Positions 2,167 to 31,229 of a stretch of 64,000 nucleotides of DNA are shown here, piece after piece. Both the position numbers and the translations under genes were made by a program. The stretch's first letter is position 1. Each line of letters opens with the position of its first letter. The DNA is from Gammaproteobacteria bacterium. GTDB taxonomy: Bacteria; Pseudomonadota; Gammaproteobacteria; Eutrophobiales; Eutrophobiaceae. Below the pieces are notes generated by a model. That model was given only the letters and a program-made list of their open reading frames with translations, made no database searches and was not told where the DNA came from. The DNA lies in contig OZ250183.1 of the NCBI GenBank assembly GCA_965238225.1, positions 1-64,000 of the forward strand, in the 5' to 3' direction.

Positions 2167-3642
2167 TTAGCGTTGGACAGCGTCGTCTGTAGGGCTGCAA
2201 ACTGGAGAAGGCAGATCTGAACTCCCCATTAAATAAGTATCTACGCCCGCTGCTGCACTTCGCCCTTCAGCAATCGCCCAAACAATCAAACTCTGTCCTC
2301 TATGCATATCCCCTGCACTGAACACCCCTTTGACGCTGGTCATCCATGTCTTTGGATCGACAATCACATTACCACAATCATCCAACTTAACGCTCATCTG
2401 TTCCAACATGCCGGGGTTTTCAGAGCCAAGAAAGCCCATCGCTAACAGAGCCAAATCACAGGGAATTTCCTGTTCGCTGCCTGCGACTTCTTCAAAACTC
2501 ATGCGACCATCAATAGCCTTTAATTCAACGCTCACCAATTGCAATGCCTTTATATTGCCATTGCCATCATCCACAAAACGTTTGGTATTCACTGAATAAA
2601 CACGTTCGACACCTTCTGCATGGGCGGGCGTTGTTCTGAAGATACGTGGCCATTCTGGCCATGGATTATCTTCGGGTCTGGTTGTTGAAGGCTTGGGCAT
2701 GATCTCTAATTGATGGACTGATGCACAGCCTTGACGGTTCGCTGTACCTAAACAATCAACACCAGTATCACCGCCACCGATTATAACTACATGTTTGTCC
2801 GTAGCACTGATAAAATTTTCTGGCTTGTTATCACCTTCACATAATCTATTTTGCATCGGCAAATATTCCATGGCCTGATGAATACCATTTAACTCACGTC
2901 CTTCTGCTGGCAGATCGCGTGCTTCACAGGCGCCACCAGTTAAAATCAGCGCATCGAAATCTGCACGGATATCATCCACTGAAATATTAACTCCAACATT
3001 TGTATTGGTTTTAAAGGTCACACCTTCAGATTCCATTTGTCTTATTCGCCGATCAAGATGTTTCTTTTCCATCTTGAATTCGGGAATACCGTAACGCATT
3101 AAACCACCGATGCGATCGGCTCTCTCAAACAAAGTAACATCATGTCCGGCACGTACTAATTGCTGTGCTGCGGCCATACCTGCCGGACCTGATCCAATCA
3201 CCGCGACTTTCTTGCCTGTCTTATGCTTGGCAATTTCTGGTTTTATCCAACCGCTCTCCCATGCCTTATCAATGATTGATAATTCAACAGCCTTAATGGT
3301 CACAGGATCATCGTTAATATCTAATACACAGGAGCCTTCACAAGGTGCCGGACACAGAGTGCCGGTAAATTCTGGAAAGTTATTCGTCGCATGCAATCTC
3401 TCAATCGCATCATGCCACTCACCACGATAAACCAAGTCGTTCCAATCTGGAATCATGTTGCCTAAGGGACAGCCTTGGTGACAGAATGGAATACCACAAT
3501 CCATGCAACGTGAAGCCTGTACCTTTATTGGCTCCACTGACCATGGTTTCATGATCTGATCATAATCACCTAGACGTTCTTTAACTGGACGATAATCCTG
3601 TTTTTTCCTGCGCTCTTCGAGAAACCCCGTAACCTTACCCAT
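2167..3642 (-). CDS. gltD: glutamate synthase small subunit
   Basis: [10 protein letters not shown] Fe-S motif, GSGPAG and GGGDTG dinucleotide-binding motifs, [10 protein letters not shown]; overlaps gltB stop. Confidence 0.96.
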
Positions 3643-24721: not shown

Positions 24722-25996
24722 TTGCCTGCAAACCATAGTGAAATCTCATCCTTCATCTGGAATGTCTGTGACGATGTTCTTCGTGGACTCTTCAAACCCC
24801 ACGAATACGGTGATATCATTCTTCCTTTCACCGTCTTGAGAAGATTGGATTGTGTATTGGAAAAACACAAAGACACCGTGATTGATCTCTACAAGGAGTA
24901 TCAACCCAAGGTGGAAGATCCCACACCCATCATCCTCAATGAGATTCACACCACCTTCTTCAACCACTCCAAATATGATCTCAACCGACTAAGACAAGAT
25001 CCATCCAATGTTCAGATGAACTTCCAGAACTATCTTGGAGGATACAGTGAAAATGTGGTGAAGGTCATAGAAAATTTCCAGTTGGAGAGACCTGTTGAGA
25101 AGTTGAATAAAAGTAATCGACTTTTCCAGTTTGTTGAAAAGTTTAGTGAGATTGATCTACACCCGAATCGTGTTTCCAACCACCAGATGGGACAGATTTT
25201 TGAGGAACTGTTGAGGAAGTTCTCTGAGATGTCCAATGAAACCAGTGGAGAACACTACACCCCTCGTGATGTGGTTCGTCTATTGGTTTCAATGGTCTTC
25301 TCTGAGGATGAAGATGATTTACAAGGACAAGGAAAGGTCAGGAGTATTTTTGATCCTTGTTGTGGAACTGGTGGAATGTTGACCATTGGTAAAGAATGGG
25401 TTCGAGACAACATCAATAACAAAGTAGACTTTCGTTTATTGGGACAGGAACTCAATCCACAAACCTTCTCAATCTGTAAGTCAGATATGATGATTACAGG
25501 AGAGAACCCTGAGAATATTAAACAAGGTTCTTCACTTTCAGAAGATCGATTTCAGGGGGAACGGTTTGACTATATGGTGACCAATCCACCGTTTGGGGTG
25601 AGTTGGAAATCTGAAAAAGATTTTGTTCAGAATGAGAGTGAGAACCCACAAGGACGATTTTCAGTTGGGACTCCAAGAACTCCAGACGGTTCTCTGTTAT
25701 TCCTTCAACATATGATCTCCAAGATGGAGGACAAGGGTAGTCGAATTGGGATTGTCTTCAATGGTTCTCCTCTTTTTACAGGGGATAGTGGAAGTGGTGA
25801 ATCAGAGATTCGGAAATGGATCATAGAGAATGACTGGTTGGAGTGTATTGTCTCCCTACCTGATCGGTTGTTTTTCAACACAGGGATCTCTACATACATC
25901 TGGATCGTCTCCAACAAAAAATCAGGTAAACGACAAGGAAAGGTTCAACTGATTGATGGTTCTTCGTTCTTCAAACTTATTGAAGAAAATCATTAG
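24722..25996 (+). CDS. hsdM: type I R-M methyltransferase subunit, N-terminal part (frameshifted)
   Basis: ILPFTVLRRLD, GEHYTPR, DPCCGTGGML (motif I), NPPF (motif IV), LFFNTGI. Confidence 0.92.
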   Translation: MPANHSEISSFIWNVCDDVLRGLFKPHEYGDIILPFTVLRRLDCVLEKHKDTVIDLYKEYQPKVEDPTPIILNEIHTTFFNHSKYDLNRLRQDPSNVQMNFQNYLGGYSENVVKVIENFQLERPVEKLNKSNRLFQFVEKFSEIDLHPNRVSNHQMGQIFEELLRKFSEMSNETSGEHYTPRDVVRLLVSMVFSEDEDDLQGQGKVRSIFDPCCGTGGMLTIGKEWVRDNINNKVDFRLLGQELNPQTFSICKSDMMITGENPENIKQGSSLSEDRFQGERFDYMVTNPPFGVSWKSEKDFVQNESENPQGRFSVGTPRTPDGSLLFLQHMISKMEDKGSRIGIVFNGSPLFTGDSGSGESEIRKWIIENDWLECIVSLPDRLFFNTGISTYIWIVSNKKSGKRQGKVQLIDGSSFFKLIEENH

Positions 25997-26735
25997 GAAA
26001 CAAGAGGAAAAGAGATCTCTGATGAGGGTCGAGAATAAGATTGTTCAACATTACCTGAACTTTGAGGAGGATGAATTCTGTAAGATTTACCCTAATGAGT
26101 TTTTTGGATACACCAAGGTCACCATTGAACAACCCAAGGTTGAAAATGGAAAGGTCGTAACCGACAGACAAGGGAATCCCAAACCAGACACCAAGAAAAG
26201 AGACTATGAACGAATTCCTCTCAGTGAGGATATTGAGGAGTACTTTCAAAGAGAGGTAAAACCACATCTTCCTGACCTGCCCGCCCCATTGCCTAATTCG
26301 GATGAATATTGTACCTATGTTCTTAAATGCAGTGATGGCTCTTTTTATAAAGGGCAAACGAAGGATATACATAGAAGACTAGAAGAACATCACAAAGGAC
26401 ACGTAAGCTGGACATCTCAAAATTTACCTATAAAACTGATCCATTGGGAAGTTTTTGATACTAGGGAAAAGGCGGTTAAACGAGAACACTACTTAAAGAC
26501 AGGCAAAGGAAGAGAATGGCTTAAAAAACACTATGAAGAAGGCAAGCTGAAATCAATGGAACGGTGGCAGGCGGGTTCTTGGATGGATAGATCCAAGGAT
26601 AAAGTGGGATATGAGATCAACTTCACCAAGTATTTTTATCAGTATAAACCTCTTAGATCACTAGAAGAGATCAGTCAGGATCTCTTGAGATTGGATAAAG
26701 AGACAGAAGGGTTGATGAAGGAGATATTGGTATGA
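25953..26735 (+). CDS. hsdM: type I R-M methyltransferase C-terminal part carrying an in-frame GIY-YIG insertion
   Basis: FGYTKVTIEQP, YFQREVKPHLPD...SWMDRSKDKVGYEINFTKYFY are HsdM C-terminal motifs, interrupted by 100 aa. Confidence 0.85.
   Translation: MMVLRSSNLLKKIIRKQEEKRSLMRVENKIVQHYLNFEEDEFCKIYPNEFFGYTKVTIEQPKVENGKVVTDRQGNPKPDTKKRDYERIPLSEDIEEYFQREVKPHLPDLPAPLPNSDEYCTYVLKCSDGSFYKGQTKDIHRRLEEHHKGHVSWTSQNLPIKLIHWEVFDTREKAVKREHYLKTGKGREWLKKHYEEGKLKSMERWQAGSWMDRSKDKVGYEINFTKYFYQYKPLRSLEEISQDLLRLDKETEGLMKEILV
26276..26575 (+). mobile_element. 300-bp in-frame insertion encoding a GIY-YIG nuclease domain, bounded by imperfect inverted repeats
   Basis: TYVLKCSDGSFYKGQT..RRLEEH..G..P..L..E.F..R..A..RE..LK.GKGR; ends CCTGCCCGCC / GGCAGGCGGG; 14 GpC inside versus none in about 1.5 kb on each side. 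Confidence 0.8.
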
Positions 26736-26752
26736 ATCCCTATCCTTCATAC

Positions 26753-27461
26753 AAAGACAGTGGGGTTGAGTGGGTTGGGGAGATTCCGAGTGGGTGGAAG
26801 ATAAATCGACTTGGAATGATGGGTGTTTATTCATCAAGTGGGATTGACAAAGAAAACAATAGAAGAGAACCATTGTAAATATGGTGAACTATATGGATGT
26901 TTATGGAAATGGTTTACATTTATTAGATAGTTCAAGGAATTATATGACAGTTAGTTGTCCTTCAACAAAGGTTTTAGAACATCAAATAAAAAAAGGTGAC
27001 TTATTGTTTCTTCCAAGTTCTGAAACCGAAGTTGATTTAGGGTTATCTTCATTGATAGATGAAGAACTACCCAACACGGTATTTTTTATCATTTGGTGAG
27101 ATACCAATTTACAGTGAAATATATAAATTCTTTTAGAAAGTTTCTTTTTAATAATTACATCGTTTCAAATGAGTTTTCTAGACAAGGGAAAGGTACTACA
27201 CGACACCATTATTGGTAGGAATGATTCAGAAATATAAATGTAGTAATTCCACCTCTCCAAGAACAACAACAAATCTCCAACTACCTTGACCACAAGACCC
27301 AACAGATTGACTCTCTGATTGAGAAGACCCAACAGAAGATTGAACTACTGAAAGAACAACGAACCTCTCTGATCAATCAGGTGGTCACCAAGGGACTCAA
27401 TCCTGATGTAAAGATGAAAGACAGTGGTGTTGAGTGGATTGGGGAGATTCCGAGTGGGTGG
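26753..27461 (+). repeat. 45-bp direct repeat pair preceding hsdS TRD1 and TRD2 (26753-26797, 27417-27461)
   Basis: AAAGACAGTGG(G/T)GTTGAGTGG(G/A)TTGGGGAGATTCCGAGTGGGTGG, 43/45 identical. Confidence 0.85.
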
Positions 27462-28078
27462 GTAGTACAAAAATAAATATTTAGTATCTTACCAAGTAAT
27501 GTCAAAAGACTCTATCCAGAAGAGGTACATTTGGTTCGTCTATGTAACTATCTGATGTCTACTATGAATTCATAAGGTGTTCGGATCTTAACTCAAAGAA
27601 ATGGAAGATTTCAACCAGACATGATATTTGATAAGTTGAGAAGTTCGAAACAATGAAGTTTGATGTATCACAAAGGATTCTGAATCCCAAGATGATATAG
27701 GAAAGATACTATTGTAACTGAATGATTTGAAATTGATGTACGTATGTGGTTATCATCTAAACAAATGATGAATTGTATCCAAGAAATGTTGTGGGTGGTA
27801 TATCATTCTTCAGGTTTATTCAGTCAGTAGAAAAGGAAAGTAATTCAACAAAATTCAGATGTGATTTACTAAAGTTTGGACTTGGAAAACAGAATTGAAA
27901 ATATGTATTTCCCAGAACCAACCATCCAAGAACAACAACAAATCGTAGACTACCTCGACAAAGAAACCACCAAGATTGACTCCACCATTGAAAAGGAAAC
28001 CCAACGAATCGATCTCCTCAAAGAATACCGTCAGTCTCTGATCTCGGAAGTGGTAACTGGAAAGGTGGATGTCCGTGA

Positions 28079-28099
28079 CCTGCCTGTCGGCAGACAAGG
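28079..28099. repeat. 21-bp palindromic in-frame insertion (encodes LPVGRQG)
   Basis: CCTGCCTGTCGGCAGACAAGG imperfect hairpin; holds the only two GpC of hsdS; similar to the ends of the 300-bp insert. Confidence 0.75.
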
Positions 28100-28111
28100 T
28101 GAGGTGGTGGT

Positions 28112-31087
28112 ATGAGTCCAACCAACTACACAGAACAAGATTTTGAGGAACACATTGAGGAACAACTCACAAACAGTGAATACCACATTGTACCGCCCAC
28201 CAAATACGACAAAACCCTCTGTCTGATTCCCTCCAAACTGATCGAATTCATTAAAGAGACTCAATCCAAAATATTTGAGAAGCTAGAACTCCAATACGGT
28301 TTAGAAACAGAATCAAAACTGACCAAACGAATATCCTCCGAAATCGAATCTCGTGGGGTGATTGATGTACTTAGAAAGGGTGTCAAGGATAGAGGATGTA
28401 CTTTTCATCTGGTCTATTTCCAACCCAAATCAGGTTTGAACCCTGACCATCAAGAACTCTACAAGAAGAACAAACTGATCACGGTTAGACAGCTGAAGTA
28501 TTCCAAACACAATGAGAATTCTATTGATATGGGAATCTTCATCAATGGGATTCCTATTATGTTGTTGGAATTGAAGAACTCTCTCACTGGTCAGAATCAC
28601 AACGATGGAATCAAACAATGGAAGTTTGATCGTGACCCAAAGGAACCCCTTTTCAAATTCAAAAGGAATCTGGTCTATTTCTCAGTAGGAAATGAAAAAG
28701 TCTCAATGACCACCCGATTGAGTGGTTCCAAGACAAGGTTCCTCCCCTTCAACAAAGATATTGAGAATCCAGTCAACCCAAAAGGACACAAAACTCATTA
28801 TCTATGGGATGACATCCTACAACCCAACTTCGTATTAGATCTGATTGAGAACTTTGTCCATATCCGAACCGAAACCGATAAGGTTTACGATCCTCAGAAA
28901 AAAAAGGTTGTAGACAAAAAGAGTGAGGTGTTGATCTTCCCTCGTTTCCATCAACTCAATGTCATCCGAAAACTGAAAAGAGATGTGGTTCAGAAGGGAT
29001 CAGGACAAAACTATCTCATTCAACACACCACAGGTTCTGGTAAATCTCTCTCTATTGGTTGGTTGAGTCATCTTCTCTCTTCACTCTATCAATCACCAAC
29101 AGACACCAATCGAATCTTTAACTCTGTGATAGTGGTGACAGACAGAAGGGTTCTGGATAAACAGATCAGTAATACCATCAAACAACTGGAACAGACTAAG
29201 GGAGTGGTGAATCCAGTTGATGAAACAGCTCAACAGTTGAAGGAGTTACTTGAGTCTGGAAAGCCAATCATCATTACCACCATCCAAATGTTTCCTTTCA
29301 TTTCTGATCAAATTCCCAAAATGAAGAATAAGAAATTCGGAGTAATAATTGATGAGGTTCATTCTTCTCAAAGTGGTGAATCCTCCAAACACTTGAAGAG
29401 ATCTTTGTCAGACACTTCATTAGATGAATTTCAAGAAGGTGAAGGAAGTGGAGATCTGACAGAAGTAGATAAATTGATATTAGATGAGATCAAGTCAAGC
29501 GGGAAACAACCCAATATTTCATACTTTGGATTCAGTGGAACTCCTAAGAACAAGACCCTTGAGATCTTTGGTACTAAGACAGACAAGGGATTACAACCTT
29601 TCGATCTCTACTCAATGAAACAGAGTTTGTCTGAAGGGTTCACTCTGGATGTCCTCCAGAACTACACCACCTATAAACGATATTTCAAACTCAACAAGGT
29701 CATAGAGGAAGATCACGAACTTCCGAAGAGTCGTGTGAAGTCAATGTTGATGAGATGGGTAGACTTACATCCACATTCTATTAGAGAAAAATCCAAGATA
29801 ATCTTGGAACACTTCATCAACCATACTCAAAACAAGATTAGTGGAAAGAGTCGTGGGATGTTGGTGACTCGTTCAAGACTTCATTGTGTGAAGTACAAAT
29901 TGGAGTTTGATAAACAGATGAAGGAGAGGGGACTTCCTTTTCGTTCACTGGTAGGGTTTTCTGGGAAGGTATATGACGAAGATAGTCATCAGGAATATAC
30001 AGAGTCTTCAATGAATGGATTCCCAGAGGGTCAAACAGAAGAAAACTTAAAAGACCCCAAGTTCAGAATCCTGATTGTAAACAACAAATTCCAGACAGGG
30101 TTTGATGAACCGATGTTACACACAATGTATGTAGACAAGAAGATGGGTGGATTACAGTGTGTTCAGACCCTCTCAAGACTGAACAGAACAATGTCAGGAA
30201 AGACCGATACCTTCGTATTGGATTTTGTGAATGACCCTGATGAAGTTGGTGAGTCCTTCCAACCTTACTTCAAAGGTTCTGTTTTAACAGAAGAGACTGA
30301 CCCCAACCGACTCTATCAGATTGAACAGGAGATAAAACAGTACAACTTGTTCCAAGAAGAAACCGTCAACCTCTATGTGGATACCTTCTACCGTGAAGAT
30401 ATTCCGATGGAGGAATTACAAGGGATTCTGGATACCGTTGTTGAGGGGTGGAATGAACTGGAAGAAGAACAGGAGAACTTCCGCAGTCATATACAGAGTT
30501 TCATTAGACTCTATGGATATATTTCACAGATCATCACATTCAAAGACATCGGATTAGAGAAACTCTACATCTTCCTTCGTGGACTCAACAAGAAACTTCC
30601 AAGAAGACCTCCCACAGATCAACCTGAAATCCTTTCAACCGTTGACTTGGAATACTTCAAGATTGAGAAGAAGTACTCCGCTAAGATTGAACTGGAAGAT
30701 GAAGAGGGTGAATTACAAGGAATAAGTGAGGATGGTGTATCTTACAATGATGATGAAGAACCCGTTGACCTACTCTCAGAGATCATCCAGAAACTCAATA
30801 ACGCATTTGATGGAGATTTCTCTGATGAAGATAGAGTGAGAATTGAGAAGATCAAAGAACAGATTGACAAGGATATAGAACTTAGAATGGTGATGGAGGG
30901 GGATAATACAGATTCCAACAAGAAGGATAAGTTCAACCGTACCTTTGAAAAATTTTTGACAGATTTGGTAGATGAAAATATTGACTTCTACAATAAACTA
31001 AAAGAACCAAAGAAAAACAGATTTATGAAGGATCGTATGTATGAATTGTATGCAAAATCAATCAATGAGATGAGACCGAGTATTTAG
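28112..31087 (+). CDS. hsdR: type I R-M restriction subunit
   Basis: Nuclease D..INGIP...ELK, Walker A QHTTGSGKS, DEVH, FSGTP, FQTGFDEP, QTLSRLNR. Confidence 0.93.
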   Translation: MSPTNYTEQDFEEHIEEQLTNSEYHIVPPTKYDKTLCLIPSKLIEFIKETQSKIFEKLELQYGLETESKLTKRISSEIESRGVIDVLRKGVKDRGCTFHLVYFQPKSGLNPDHQELYKKNKLITVRQLKYSKHNENSIDMGIFINGIPIMLLELKNSLTGQNHNDGIKQWKFDRDPKEPLFKFKRNLVYFSVGNEKVSMTTRLSGSKTRFLPFNKDIENPVNPKGHKTHYLWDDILQPNFVLDLIENFVHIRTETDKVYDPQKKKVVDKKSEVLIFPRFHQLNVIRKLKRDVVQKGSGQNYLIQHTTGSGKSLSIGWLSHLLSSLYQSPTDTNRIFNSVIVVTDRRVLDKQISNTIKQLEQTKGVVNPVDETAQQLKELLESGKPIIITTIQMFPFISDQIPKMKNKKFGVIIDEVHSSQSGESSKHLKRSLSDTSLDEFQEGEGSGDLTEVDKLILDEIKSSGKQPNISYFGFSGTPKNKTLEIFGTKTDKGLQPFDLYSMKQSLSEGFTLDVLQNYTTYKRYFKLNKVIEEDHELPKSRVKSMLMRWVDLHPHSIREKSKIILEHFINHTQNKISGKSRGMLVTRSRLHCVKYKLEFDKQMKERGLPFRSLVGFSGKVYDEDSHQEYTESSMNGFPEGQTEENLKDPKFRILIVNNKFQTGFDEPMLHTMYVDKKMGGLQCVQTLSRLNRTMSGKTDTFVLDFVNDPDEVGESFQPYFKGSVLTEETDPNRLYQIEQEIKQYNLFQEETVNLYVDTFYREDIPMEELQGILDTVVEGWNELEEEQENFRSHIQSFIRLYGYISQIITFKDIGLEKLYIFLRGLNKKLPRRPPTDQPEILSTVDLEYFKIEKKYSAKIELEDEEGELQGISEDGVSYNDDEEPVDLLSEIIQKLNNAFDGDFSDEDRVRIEKIKEQIDKDIELRMVMEGDNTDSNKKDKFNRTFEKFLTDLVDENIDFYNKLKEPKKNRFMKDRMYELYAKSINEMRPSI

Positions 31088-31229
31088 TTAGCCGATCAAT
31101 CCTCAATTCGGATGACCAATGGGAATATACAATCCAAACGATTCATCGAATGATATCGACCGACGGAATTTAGTGACAATCGATTTTGGAGTCGGTAGAC
31201 CGCAACCATTCCTCTGCCGGCAGTGGCTA

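Follow-up and report, generated by a model that had tools for sequence, protein, structure and literature searches.

A GIY-YIG nuclease cassette within a bacterial hsdM gene: a probable member of a widespread selfish family with pairing ends

Selfish nucleases lodged at conserved sites of conserved host genes are best known from the homing endonuclease genes, which travel in inteins or in group I introns or stand free and include, in the GIY-YIG class, I-TevI. Here we describe a 300-bp insert, the GIY-YIG cassette, in hsdM, the methyltransferase subunit gene of a type I restriction-modification (R-M) system, in a stretch of 64,000 nucleotides of a gammaproteobacterium of the Eutrophobiaceae (assembly GCA_965238225.1, contig OZ250183.1, positions 1 to 64,000; this whole stretch is called the window). 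We propose, with a probability of about 0.78 judged by sequence comparison, that these 300 bp are one copy of a widespread and so far undescribed family of selfish GIY-YIG cassettes. The family resembles homing endonuclease genes in being present or absent in close alleles, in its low copy number, in its site-specific lineages with occasional switches, and in its use of R-M and ribonucleotide reductase genes as hosts. It differs from them in that it has no splicing element and stays in the protein, in having no DNA-binding domain beside its catalytic core of ~80 aa, and in its conserved, covarying inverted repeats, which classical homing elements do not need. We consider that it is best filed with the homing-type selfish nuclease genes, with transposon-like ends in addition.

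Repetitive extragenic palindromic (REP) sequences and the REP-associated tyrosine transposases (RAYTs) are also comparable, as they combine short palindromes in up to hundreds of copies (497 in genome G006 in our case) with a small nuclease gene that lies between or next to palindromes (as at locus L305). However, RAYTs are HUH/Y1 enzymes and REP sequences differ from the solo palindromes described below; moreover, REPs are extragenic, whereas the cassette enzyme is of the GIY-YIG class, lies within a split palindrome and within genes, and is single-copy. An earlier reading of this DNA, made from its letters alone (the original prediction), had likened the insert to REP/RAYT systems. With a single copy per genome the cassette is more homing-like, although the solo palindromes reach those 497 copies in one genome.

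The ShiLan domain of actinophage DNA methylases is described as an in-frame, non-splicing and homing-like insert in which the HNH gene runs out of frame with its own GTG and TAA (PMC11855218). Like ShiLan, the cassette interrupts a methylase gene, is not spliced and is translated together with its host; it differs from ShiLan in that the in-frame product is the nuclease, in its GIY-YIG class, in its inverted-repeat ends and in its many host families and phyla. Rickettsia palindromic elements are in-frame peptide insertions of ~150 bp, restricted to Rickettsia and encoding no enzyme, and none of the in-frame MITEs (miniature transposable elements with inverted repeats) treated in the accessible text of the same review has an enzyme, the word nuclease being absent from that text (PMC10969869). 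The solo 18- and 21-bp forms of our palindrome are translated in frame like these elements as there described, but the cassette brings its own predicted nuclease and has no target duplication. A GIY-YIG domain of Slx1-like type located at about residue 800 of the HsdR protein MCA0838 of Methylococcus capsulatus is absent from an 80%-identical homolog, and this insertion was termed very recent in the section of the paper that treats it (Dunin-Horkawicz et al. 2006, PMC1564403). It is likely that the MCA0838 insert belongs to the cassette family, although it appears in that section as a lone case whose ends, family, host range and mobility are not described. Apart from this single-case remark of 2006, neither the family nor its palindrome was described in the literature searched, most subscription journals lying outside the search, and the 20-mer CCTGCCTGCCGGCAGGCAGG and the peptides LPAPRPG and LPAGRQ had no occurrence in the papers searched. 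Finally, the stand-alone UPF0213 or bacterial Slx1-like proteins (1ywl, 1zg2) are the nearest solved sequence relatives of the cassette, and stand-alone proteins of 79-147 aa are found in the same genomes, but such genes start and stop on codons of their own and are without the LPAP/RQAG ends.

The insert measures exactly 300 bp and contributes 100 codons to the hsdM frame with zero stops (LPAPLP...ERWQAG; Table 1). It is placed between GA (26274-26275) and T (26576) of one Asp codon, so that the junctions in the window read cat ctt cct ga^C CTG CCC GCC ... CAG GCG GG^t tct tgg atg gat, and its ends form an inverted repeat with Watson-Crick pairs at 8 of 10 positions. The window copy carries one TGG codon more in its right end (26564-26566 region; ERWQAG instead of ERQAG), and both ends depart from the family consensus as a degenerate variant that L083 and L084 share. 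The GIY-YIG model of Pfam (PF01541) matches the insert at E 4.9e-14, its score of 52.8 bits being well over the cut-off of 22.6, and a profile search of the PDB with the cassette retrieved the UPF0213 proteins 1ywl (4.1e-16) and 1zg2 (8.7e-15) and then Slx1 (0.036). The original prediction of an exact, in-frame insert with these ends and a compact GIY-YIG domain was thus confirmed, and we assign the domain, as a predicted nuclease, to the UPF0213/Slx1-like branch of the GIY-YIG superfamily. The hallmarks of this superfamily are the GIY and YIG tyrosines, a central Arg and a C-terminal Glu (PMC1564403). Y14, G26, R34, H38 and E70 are unchanged in 12 of 12 aligned cassettes, the window copy among them, and the YIG tyrosine (Y24) is present in 10 of them, including the window copy, and substituted in the 2 others. 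PF01541 is the only Pfam domain inside the cassette, in which no transposase of the DDE, HUH, serine or tyrosine type was found; it matched none of 5,027 PADLOC defence models and nothing in PHROGs, and viral contigs gave only 8 partial and weak matches, leaving phage carriage unsupported. Two other identities were tried and rejected, in agreement with the original prediction. An intein is contradicted by the lack of a Hint domain (Pfam finds only PF01541) and by an insert that starts with Leu (LPAP) and ends with Gly (WQAG); mini-inteins, besides, are longer than 100 aa. A group I or group II intron is contradicted by the lack of any Rfam family at E<=1 in 25800-28300 and by the fact that all 300 nt are reading frame.

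Alleles of hsdM without the 300 bp, which the original prediction had proposed to look for, proved to be common. PF01541 was found in none of the closest HsdM relatives (the best 120 of 7,999 scored), which reach 93% identity and are mostly of 569 aa, and 40 genome loci of relatives read ..KPH(L/V)P(D/N/E)(S/A)W(M/I)D.. across the site without interruption. The empty allele of L062 reads catcttcctgac^tcttggatggataga at the site, and P0306, in which the site is also empty, has an upstream flank identical to that of the window over 33 residues. Contigs from two runs of seawater metagenomes cross the empty site, with a depth of zero inside the insert, and a contig of run X3 (depth 91.9) joins 26272 to 26576 with AGA between them. 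The filled form was found in a contig of 431 nt of run X1 (depth 24.9), which runs through the whole insert and across either junction and shows 1 difference, although X1 may be the source sample and thus not independent. No target duplication was seen in any of three filled/empty comparisons (the hsdM cassette, a solo palindrome in hsdS and a solo palindrome in a tRNA copy of L305), as had been predicted from GA^insert^T and as the L062 allele bears out. These comparisons indicate that insertion was exact, in frame and free of duplication, between GA and T/C of the Asp codon. The closest cassette, that of P0271, is 69% identical to ours and resides in an HsdM 67% identical to that of the window, versus 93% for the empty alleles. 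Some alleles thus have the site filled whereas their close relatives have it empty, which is the pattern of homing elements. Neither the hsdM of the window nor the cassette turned up in the 40 genomes related to the host that were searched, 10 of which belong to its genus, and the domain is accordingly not a vertical fusion of this clade. The host genome has no second cassette, and its sole other GIY-YIG gene (genome 1487212-1487415; L002 1456-1710, minus strand) is a stand-alone 84-aa UPF0213 homolog, 34% identical to the cassette, common to the same-genus relatives and with no tRNA or palindrome nearby; this gene is excluded as source of the cassette.

A search with the 101-residue insert against 1.84 billion representatives gave 7,157 hits at E<=0.001, 419 of which were at <=1e-10. 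In the best 150 of these, the match was internal in 110 (at least 30 aa on both sides), at the C-end in 15, at the N-end in 15 and in stand-alone sized proteins in 10, two copies being present in 2 proteins. A strict LP..P...RQAG pattern delimits cassettes in 77 of the 150, typically of 94 residues; cassettes of the family are 282-324 bp long, their length being a multiple of 3 by construction, as the right end was sought in the frame of the left one. Pfam recognized PF01541 in all of the first 100 and Methylase_S (HsdS) in 52; PseudoU_synth_2, DUF1156 and TaqI_C were found in 2 each, and ribonucleotide reductase, QueC, trigger factor, Eco57I, EcoEI_R_C, TfoX, N6_N4_Mtase, PDDEXK_1, DUF899, TypeIII_RM_meth, SNF2 and Fic in one each. 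The LPA...RQAG ends and the CCTGCC/GGCAGG flanks hence recur in unrelated host genes, as had been anticipated. A second search, of longer proteins, yielded at least 36 HsdM-length proteins (449-886 aa) with PF01541 and normal alanine content, and the cassette lies at a shared HsdM site, PD^LPA..RQAG^AW, in 36 of 37 proteins examined. In five large genomes there is exactly one embedded cassette apiece, in a frame of 676-1,131 aa, as well as several stand-alone GIY-YIG genes with frames of 71-147 aa. When 400 further genomes of the phylum were sampled, 2 gave a cassette-grade match, and in one of these 2 a single frame contains two copies. Two cassettes within one HsdS frame are seen in P0122, P0253 and G244 (contig 47, 10263-10928), in tandem in one case.

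In the cassette tree the clades follow mostly the host site: the HsdS site DPND^EPAS forms one clade and the HsdM site PD^AW two, with other sites nested within the clades of these two, suggesting that insertion sites were mostly inherited or homed to and occasionally switched. The host frames are long and intact and are retained downstream of the cassette; because the cassette keeps the host frame, its product can exist in no other form than that of a domain within the host protein. The family may then be defined as a UPF0213/Slx1-like reading frame, open at both ends and bounded by the repeats CCTGCCTGCGCCGCG ... CGCGGCAGGCAGG, which translate into the LPAP(R)P and RQAG linkers. Taking all these data together, we consider it very probable that the insert belongs to a mobile selfish family, and the earlier interpretation as a selfish palindrome plus nuclease is supported.

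The ends of the cassette behave as signals in nucleic acid and not only as linkers. Of at least 600 genome stretches matched (578 confirmed), 80 contig loci were kept; 51 loci, and the window with them, have a match at E<=1e-25 that starts at profile position 1, and 43 of these have both ends according to the pattern, the 8 without both being a variant HsdS subfamily and decayed copies (partial and stand-alone loci were dropped before this count). The 43 cassettes, from many phyla, give the consensus C CTG CCT GCG CCG CG for the left end and CG CGG CAG GCA GG for the right end, with agreement of 32-43 of 43 at each position, the sites not being independent. The two bases 5' of the element are G (41/43) and then A (34) or G (9), and the base on its 3' side is C or T (38/43). 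The codons of the ends are almost invariant (CTG 38/44, CCT 39, GCG 37, CCG 37, CGG 39, CAG 43/43, GCA 39), with an entropy of 0-0.8 bit versus 1.8-2.5 bit for the same residues at conserved interior positions, so that synonymous sites appear saturated inside the cassette and the terminal nucleotides nearly fixed. Furthermore, the interior has a GC content of 0.31-0.57 that follows that of the host (r 0.79), whereas the GC-rich ends are constant. RNAalifold analysis of the 18 cassettes of exactly 282 nt predicted a stem between columns 1-19 and 262-282, in which 96.2% of the cells are paired, compared to 20-53% when the partner is slid by 1-3 columns, and whose covariation score is 0.151 versus 0.083 for shuffled alignments (0 of 500 reach the observed value). 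Pair 16:265 occurs as GC in 7 cassettes, AU in 4, CG in 2, UA in 1, GU in 2 and other combinations in 2, each column being a synonymous site, namely the third base of an Arg codon (left) or of a Gly codon (right). The minimum-energy fold of the canonical, HsdS-borne copy L118 has its termini paired, whether computed for DNA or for RNA. The terminal nucleotides have thus stayed conserved and covary across a stem, while the interior drifted to the host composition, and the family has the terminal inverted repeats by which transposons and MITEs are recognized. In variant cassettes (L112, 2496-2800; P0142) a whole small palindrome (LPAGR or LPDGRQG) precedes the GIY-YIG domain in place of a half palindrome, which suggests that split-palindrome and flanking-palindrome architectures can interconvert.

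The same stem could have its role in the messenger: it encloses exactly the insert, and some transcripts or ribosomes might skip or remove the cassette, giving host protein without it, while read-through gives the nuclease. The outermost pair is made of the first and the last base of the element, so that taking the element out would make the Asp codon whole again; the stem admits G-U pairs (UG at columns 1 and 2 in 3 of 18 cassettes, besides the two GU at 16:265); and a benefit of this kind to the host would explain the conserved ends of long-resident copies. However, the downstream host frame is kept, which would be unnecessary if the insert were removed, no Rfam family matched, and a DNA hairpin fits the same geometry equally well. 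In addition, we know of no bacterial mechanism that removes or bypasses ~280 nt, the bypass in T4 gene 60 being of 50 nt, and we regard this explanation as unlikely.

Related palindromes are also found without a nuclease. In the host genome the best match to the 20-mer CCTGCCTGCCGGCAGGCAGG, with 3 mismatches, is a 21-bp element at the 3' end of hsdS (Table 1), which contains the only 2 GpC of this gene and of which exactly 21 nt are missing in L030, L007 and L060; no further solo copy was found in that genome. A scan of genome contigs for CCTGCCTGC-N(0-30)-GCAGGCAGG gave at least 134 hits in at least 120 stretches, and among the matches listed 97 are of 18-20 nt, 63 of these being the perfect 20-mer, from many phyla. 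Five genomes contain 497, 3, 4, 5 and 3 copies of CCTGCCTGC-N-GCAGGCAGG, and the reversed control pattern gave 0. The genome with 497 copies (G006, 3.7 Mb; locus L213 and others) has only a truncated cassette (L302) and two stand-alone GIY-YIG genes. Solo palindromes number 5 in 299 kb of cassette loci versus 0 in 977 kb of hsdM loci without a cassette. In-frame solos of 18 and 21 nt are present in L102 and L121, and the peptides encoded by the solo forms are LPAQAG, LPAGQAG and LPVGRQG. In L305 a tRNA-Lys gene has its 5' part duplicated, and the 20-mer lies within this duplicate, immediately upstream of a stand-alone GIY-YIG gene of 79 aa; in this region (1440-1825) the GIY-YIG gene is bracketed by the duplicated tRNA-Lys 5' part as if it had inserted in, and restored, the tRNA gene. 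Stand-alone UPF0213-type genes adjoin tRNA genes also in L150, L154, L156 and L160. The dinucleotide GA was considered as a general target of the solo palindromes and rejected, since it flanks 14 of 96, about what chance would give.

It might also be proposed that the cassette is a domesticated domain, an accessory nuclease of R-M proteins spread passively by ordinary recombination and not selfish. The hosts are mostly R-M proteins, as the counts of Methylase_S (52/100) and HsdM (at least 36) indicate, their frames are long and intact, the catalytic-type residues are invariant in the 12-row alignment, the interior GC is adapted to the host and there is a single copy per genome. Nevertheless, a domain of this kind would hardly be expected in hosts unconnected with cutting DNA (QueC, trigger factor, ribonucleotide reductase, pseudouridine synthases, DUF899), nor to be missing from 93%-identical alleles, and no function in the protein explains the fixation of synonymous sites at the ends or the covariation between them. 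The absence of matches to the PADLOC models and the related solo palindromes, which carry no nuclease, point in the same direction, and we find passive spread of a domesticated domain improbable.

Several observations nevertheless weigh against a selfish cassette. The support is wholly comparative, activity and movement being predicted, and the single copy, the intact host frames, the kept catalytic residues and the host-adapted GC would also fit a domesticated domain. In the window copy the ends pair at only 8 of 10 positions, the right one has the extra codon, and they are unpaired in its minimum-energy fold (z -0.54). As for the family, only 2 variable pairs in 18 related sequences carry the covariation, and pair 19:262 is unpaired in 6 of the 18. 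The link between solos and cassettes consists of sequence identity and co-location, with a GA flank in just those 14 of 96. The host genome has neither a second cassette nor a convincing second palindrome, and an excised or empty form was not seen in the contigs of run X1, which cannot reveal rare forms. Finally, a minimal GIY-YIG protein of 80 aa has no evident means of recognizing long homing sites.

With these points in mind, we propose the following mode of life for the selfish cassette. Transcription and translation would be supplied by the host gene, and the nuclease may promote copying of the cassette into cassette-less alleles in a homing-like manner. The paired termini could bring both junctions together in single-stranded nucleic acid and act as a cis site for a structure-selective nuclease, permitting precise gain and loss, and the 18-21-bp solo palindromes might be footprints or non-autonomous derivatives. 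The Slx1-Slx4 complex is reported to cut branched DNA (PMC4407285). Homing by break-induced conversion has, in our estimation, about even chances, a hairpin cut-and-join step at the paired ends is a possibility to which we give less weight, and an RNA-level role for the stem is clearly less probable than both; these are not mutually exclusive. A more far-reaching proposal, which we offer tentatively, is that the family represents a new class of mobile element, a promoter-less cassette, with neither start nor stop codon, that exists as a domain of its host protein and whose end stem offers both junctions to its own Slx1-like, structure-selective nuclease for precise insertion and excision, free of duplication, at the level of DNA or even RNA, in which case the 18-21-bp CCTGCCTGC..GCAGGCAGG palindromes would be either footprints that it left or offspring of it that are non-autonomous. 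If true, this would be the first transposon-like element powered by a GIY-YIG nuclease alone. The window copy itself is probably no longer moving here, because its ends are degenerate and the genome has no other copy.

The host operon has an unusual composition, which gives the insertions a relative date. Genome-wide, GpC occurs at 1.35 times expectation, but hsdMSR (~24730-31090) is almost without it and is the single such tract in the genome. Alanine is accordingly scarce, with 1 in 424 residues of the N part of HsdM and 4 in 991 of HsdR. The insert contains 14 GpC, near the 16.2 expected from the genome frequency, versus 2 in the other 1,714 nt of hsdM. The original prediction had placed its arrival after a purge of GpC. 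The arrival after GpC was lost agrees with the content of the insert, but a local purge does not, as 88 of the 120 closest HsdM relatives contain zero alanine and many have 0 GpC in hsdM, and the GpC-free state is a trait of the HsdM lineage as a whole. In 20 of 80 related loci, from several phyla (L006, L016, L022, L023, L025 and others), there are tracts free of GpC, which reach more than 13.7 kb, that of L025 including a serine recombinase (2633-3238); a literature search on GpC-free R-M operons found nothing. These tracts across phyla, together with the absence of the hsdM from the 40 relatives of the host genome, indicate that the island was acquired horizontally, and the window copy seems to have entered it after the lineage lost GpC.

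Table 1. Features of the hsdMSR region in the window (positions are those of the window)
Feature	Coordinates	Strand	Remarks
hsdM, type I methyltransferase subunit, cassette host	24722..26735	+	PF02384 8.4e-60 and PF12161 1.3e-24 on N part
GpC-poor island hsdMSR	24730..31090		setting in which both insertions stand out
GIY-YIG cassette	26276..26575	+	300 bp, without own start or stop, read in hsdM frame
Left terminal inverted repeat CCTGCCCGCC	26276..26285	+	family consensus CCTGCCTGCGCCGCG
Right terminal inverted repeat GGCAGGCGGG	26566..26575	+	family consensus CGCGGCAGGCAGG
hsdS, specificity subunit, several frames as assembled	26732..28115	+	
Solo 21-bp palindrome-derived element CCTGCCTGTCGGCAGACAAGG	28079..28099	+	LPVGRQG in frame, hsdS 3' end, at GA^TGAG
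hsdR, intact, 991 aa, 4 alanines	28112..31087	+	

Expression of the cassette as a domain of HsdM, also part of the original prediction, is contradicted by the gene as assembled, whose frame is broken upstream: TAG interrupts it at 25994-25996, and between 25974 and 26037 there are four single bases too many (net +1 shift). The contigs of run X1 over 25898-26203 lack these four bases, and their removal by script opens one hsdM frame of 669 codons that resembles the family consensus. Two X1 haplotypes (depths 9.8 and 18.3) span 25898-26203 and join the path of the cassette (depth 24.9). In hsdS, an X1 contig over 26775-27100 differs from the window by 4 single-base gaps. The frame breaks of both genes may be assembly or strain differences, or consensus errors over mixed alleles, and our reading does not depend on hsdM being a dead gene. 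Given such local problems, the insert might itself be imagined to be an assembly chimera, or a misread intein or group I intron, but this is highly improbable since the 431-nt X1 contig spans it with both junctions, the same architecture occupies the same site in at least 36 independent HsdM proteins, and there is no Hint domain, no Rfam hit and Leu...Gly ends rather than the Cys/Ser...His-Asn of inteins.

Besides introns, which leave the RNA, and inteins, which leave the protein, the cassette would be a third solution for a selfish nuclease that inhabits a gene and does not kill it, namely to stay as a domain. It combines traits of homing elements (fixed sites, one copy, patchy distribution) with those of transposons (conserved repeats that pair, solo derivatives), and in the window two GpC-bearing insertions within a GpC-free island provide an internal clock of a rare kind, by which the events can be ordered. 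Hundreds of proteins annotated as plain methylases or specificity subunits are affected, and the family offers a minimal predicted nuclease of ~94 residues with defined cis sequences. Moreover, it may account for the short palindromes that are spread across phyla.

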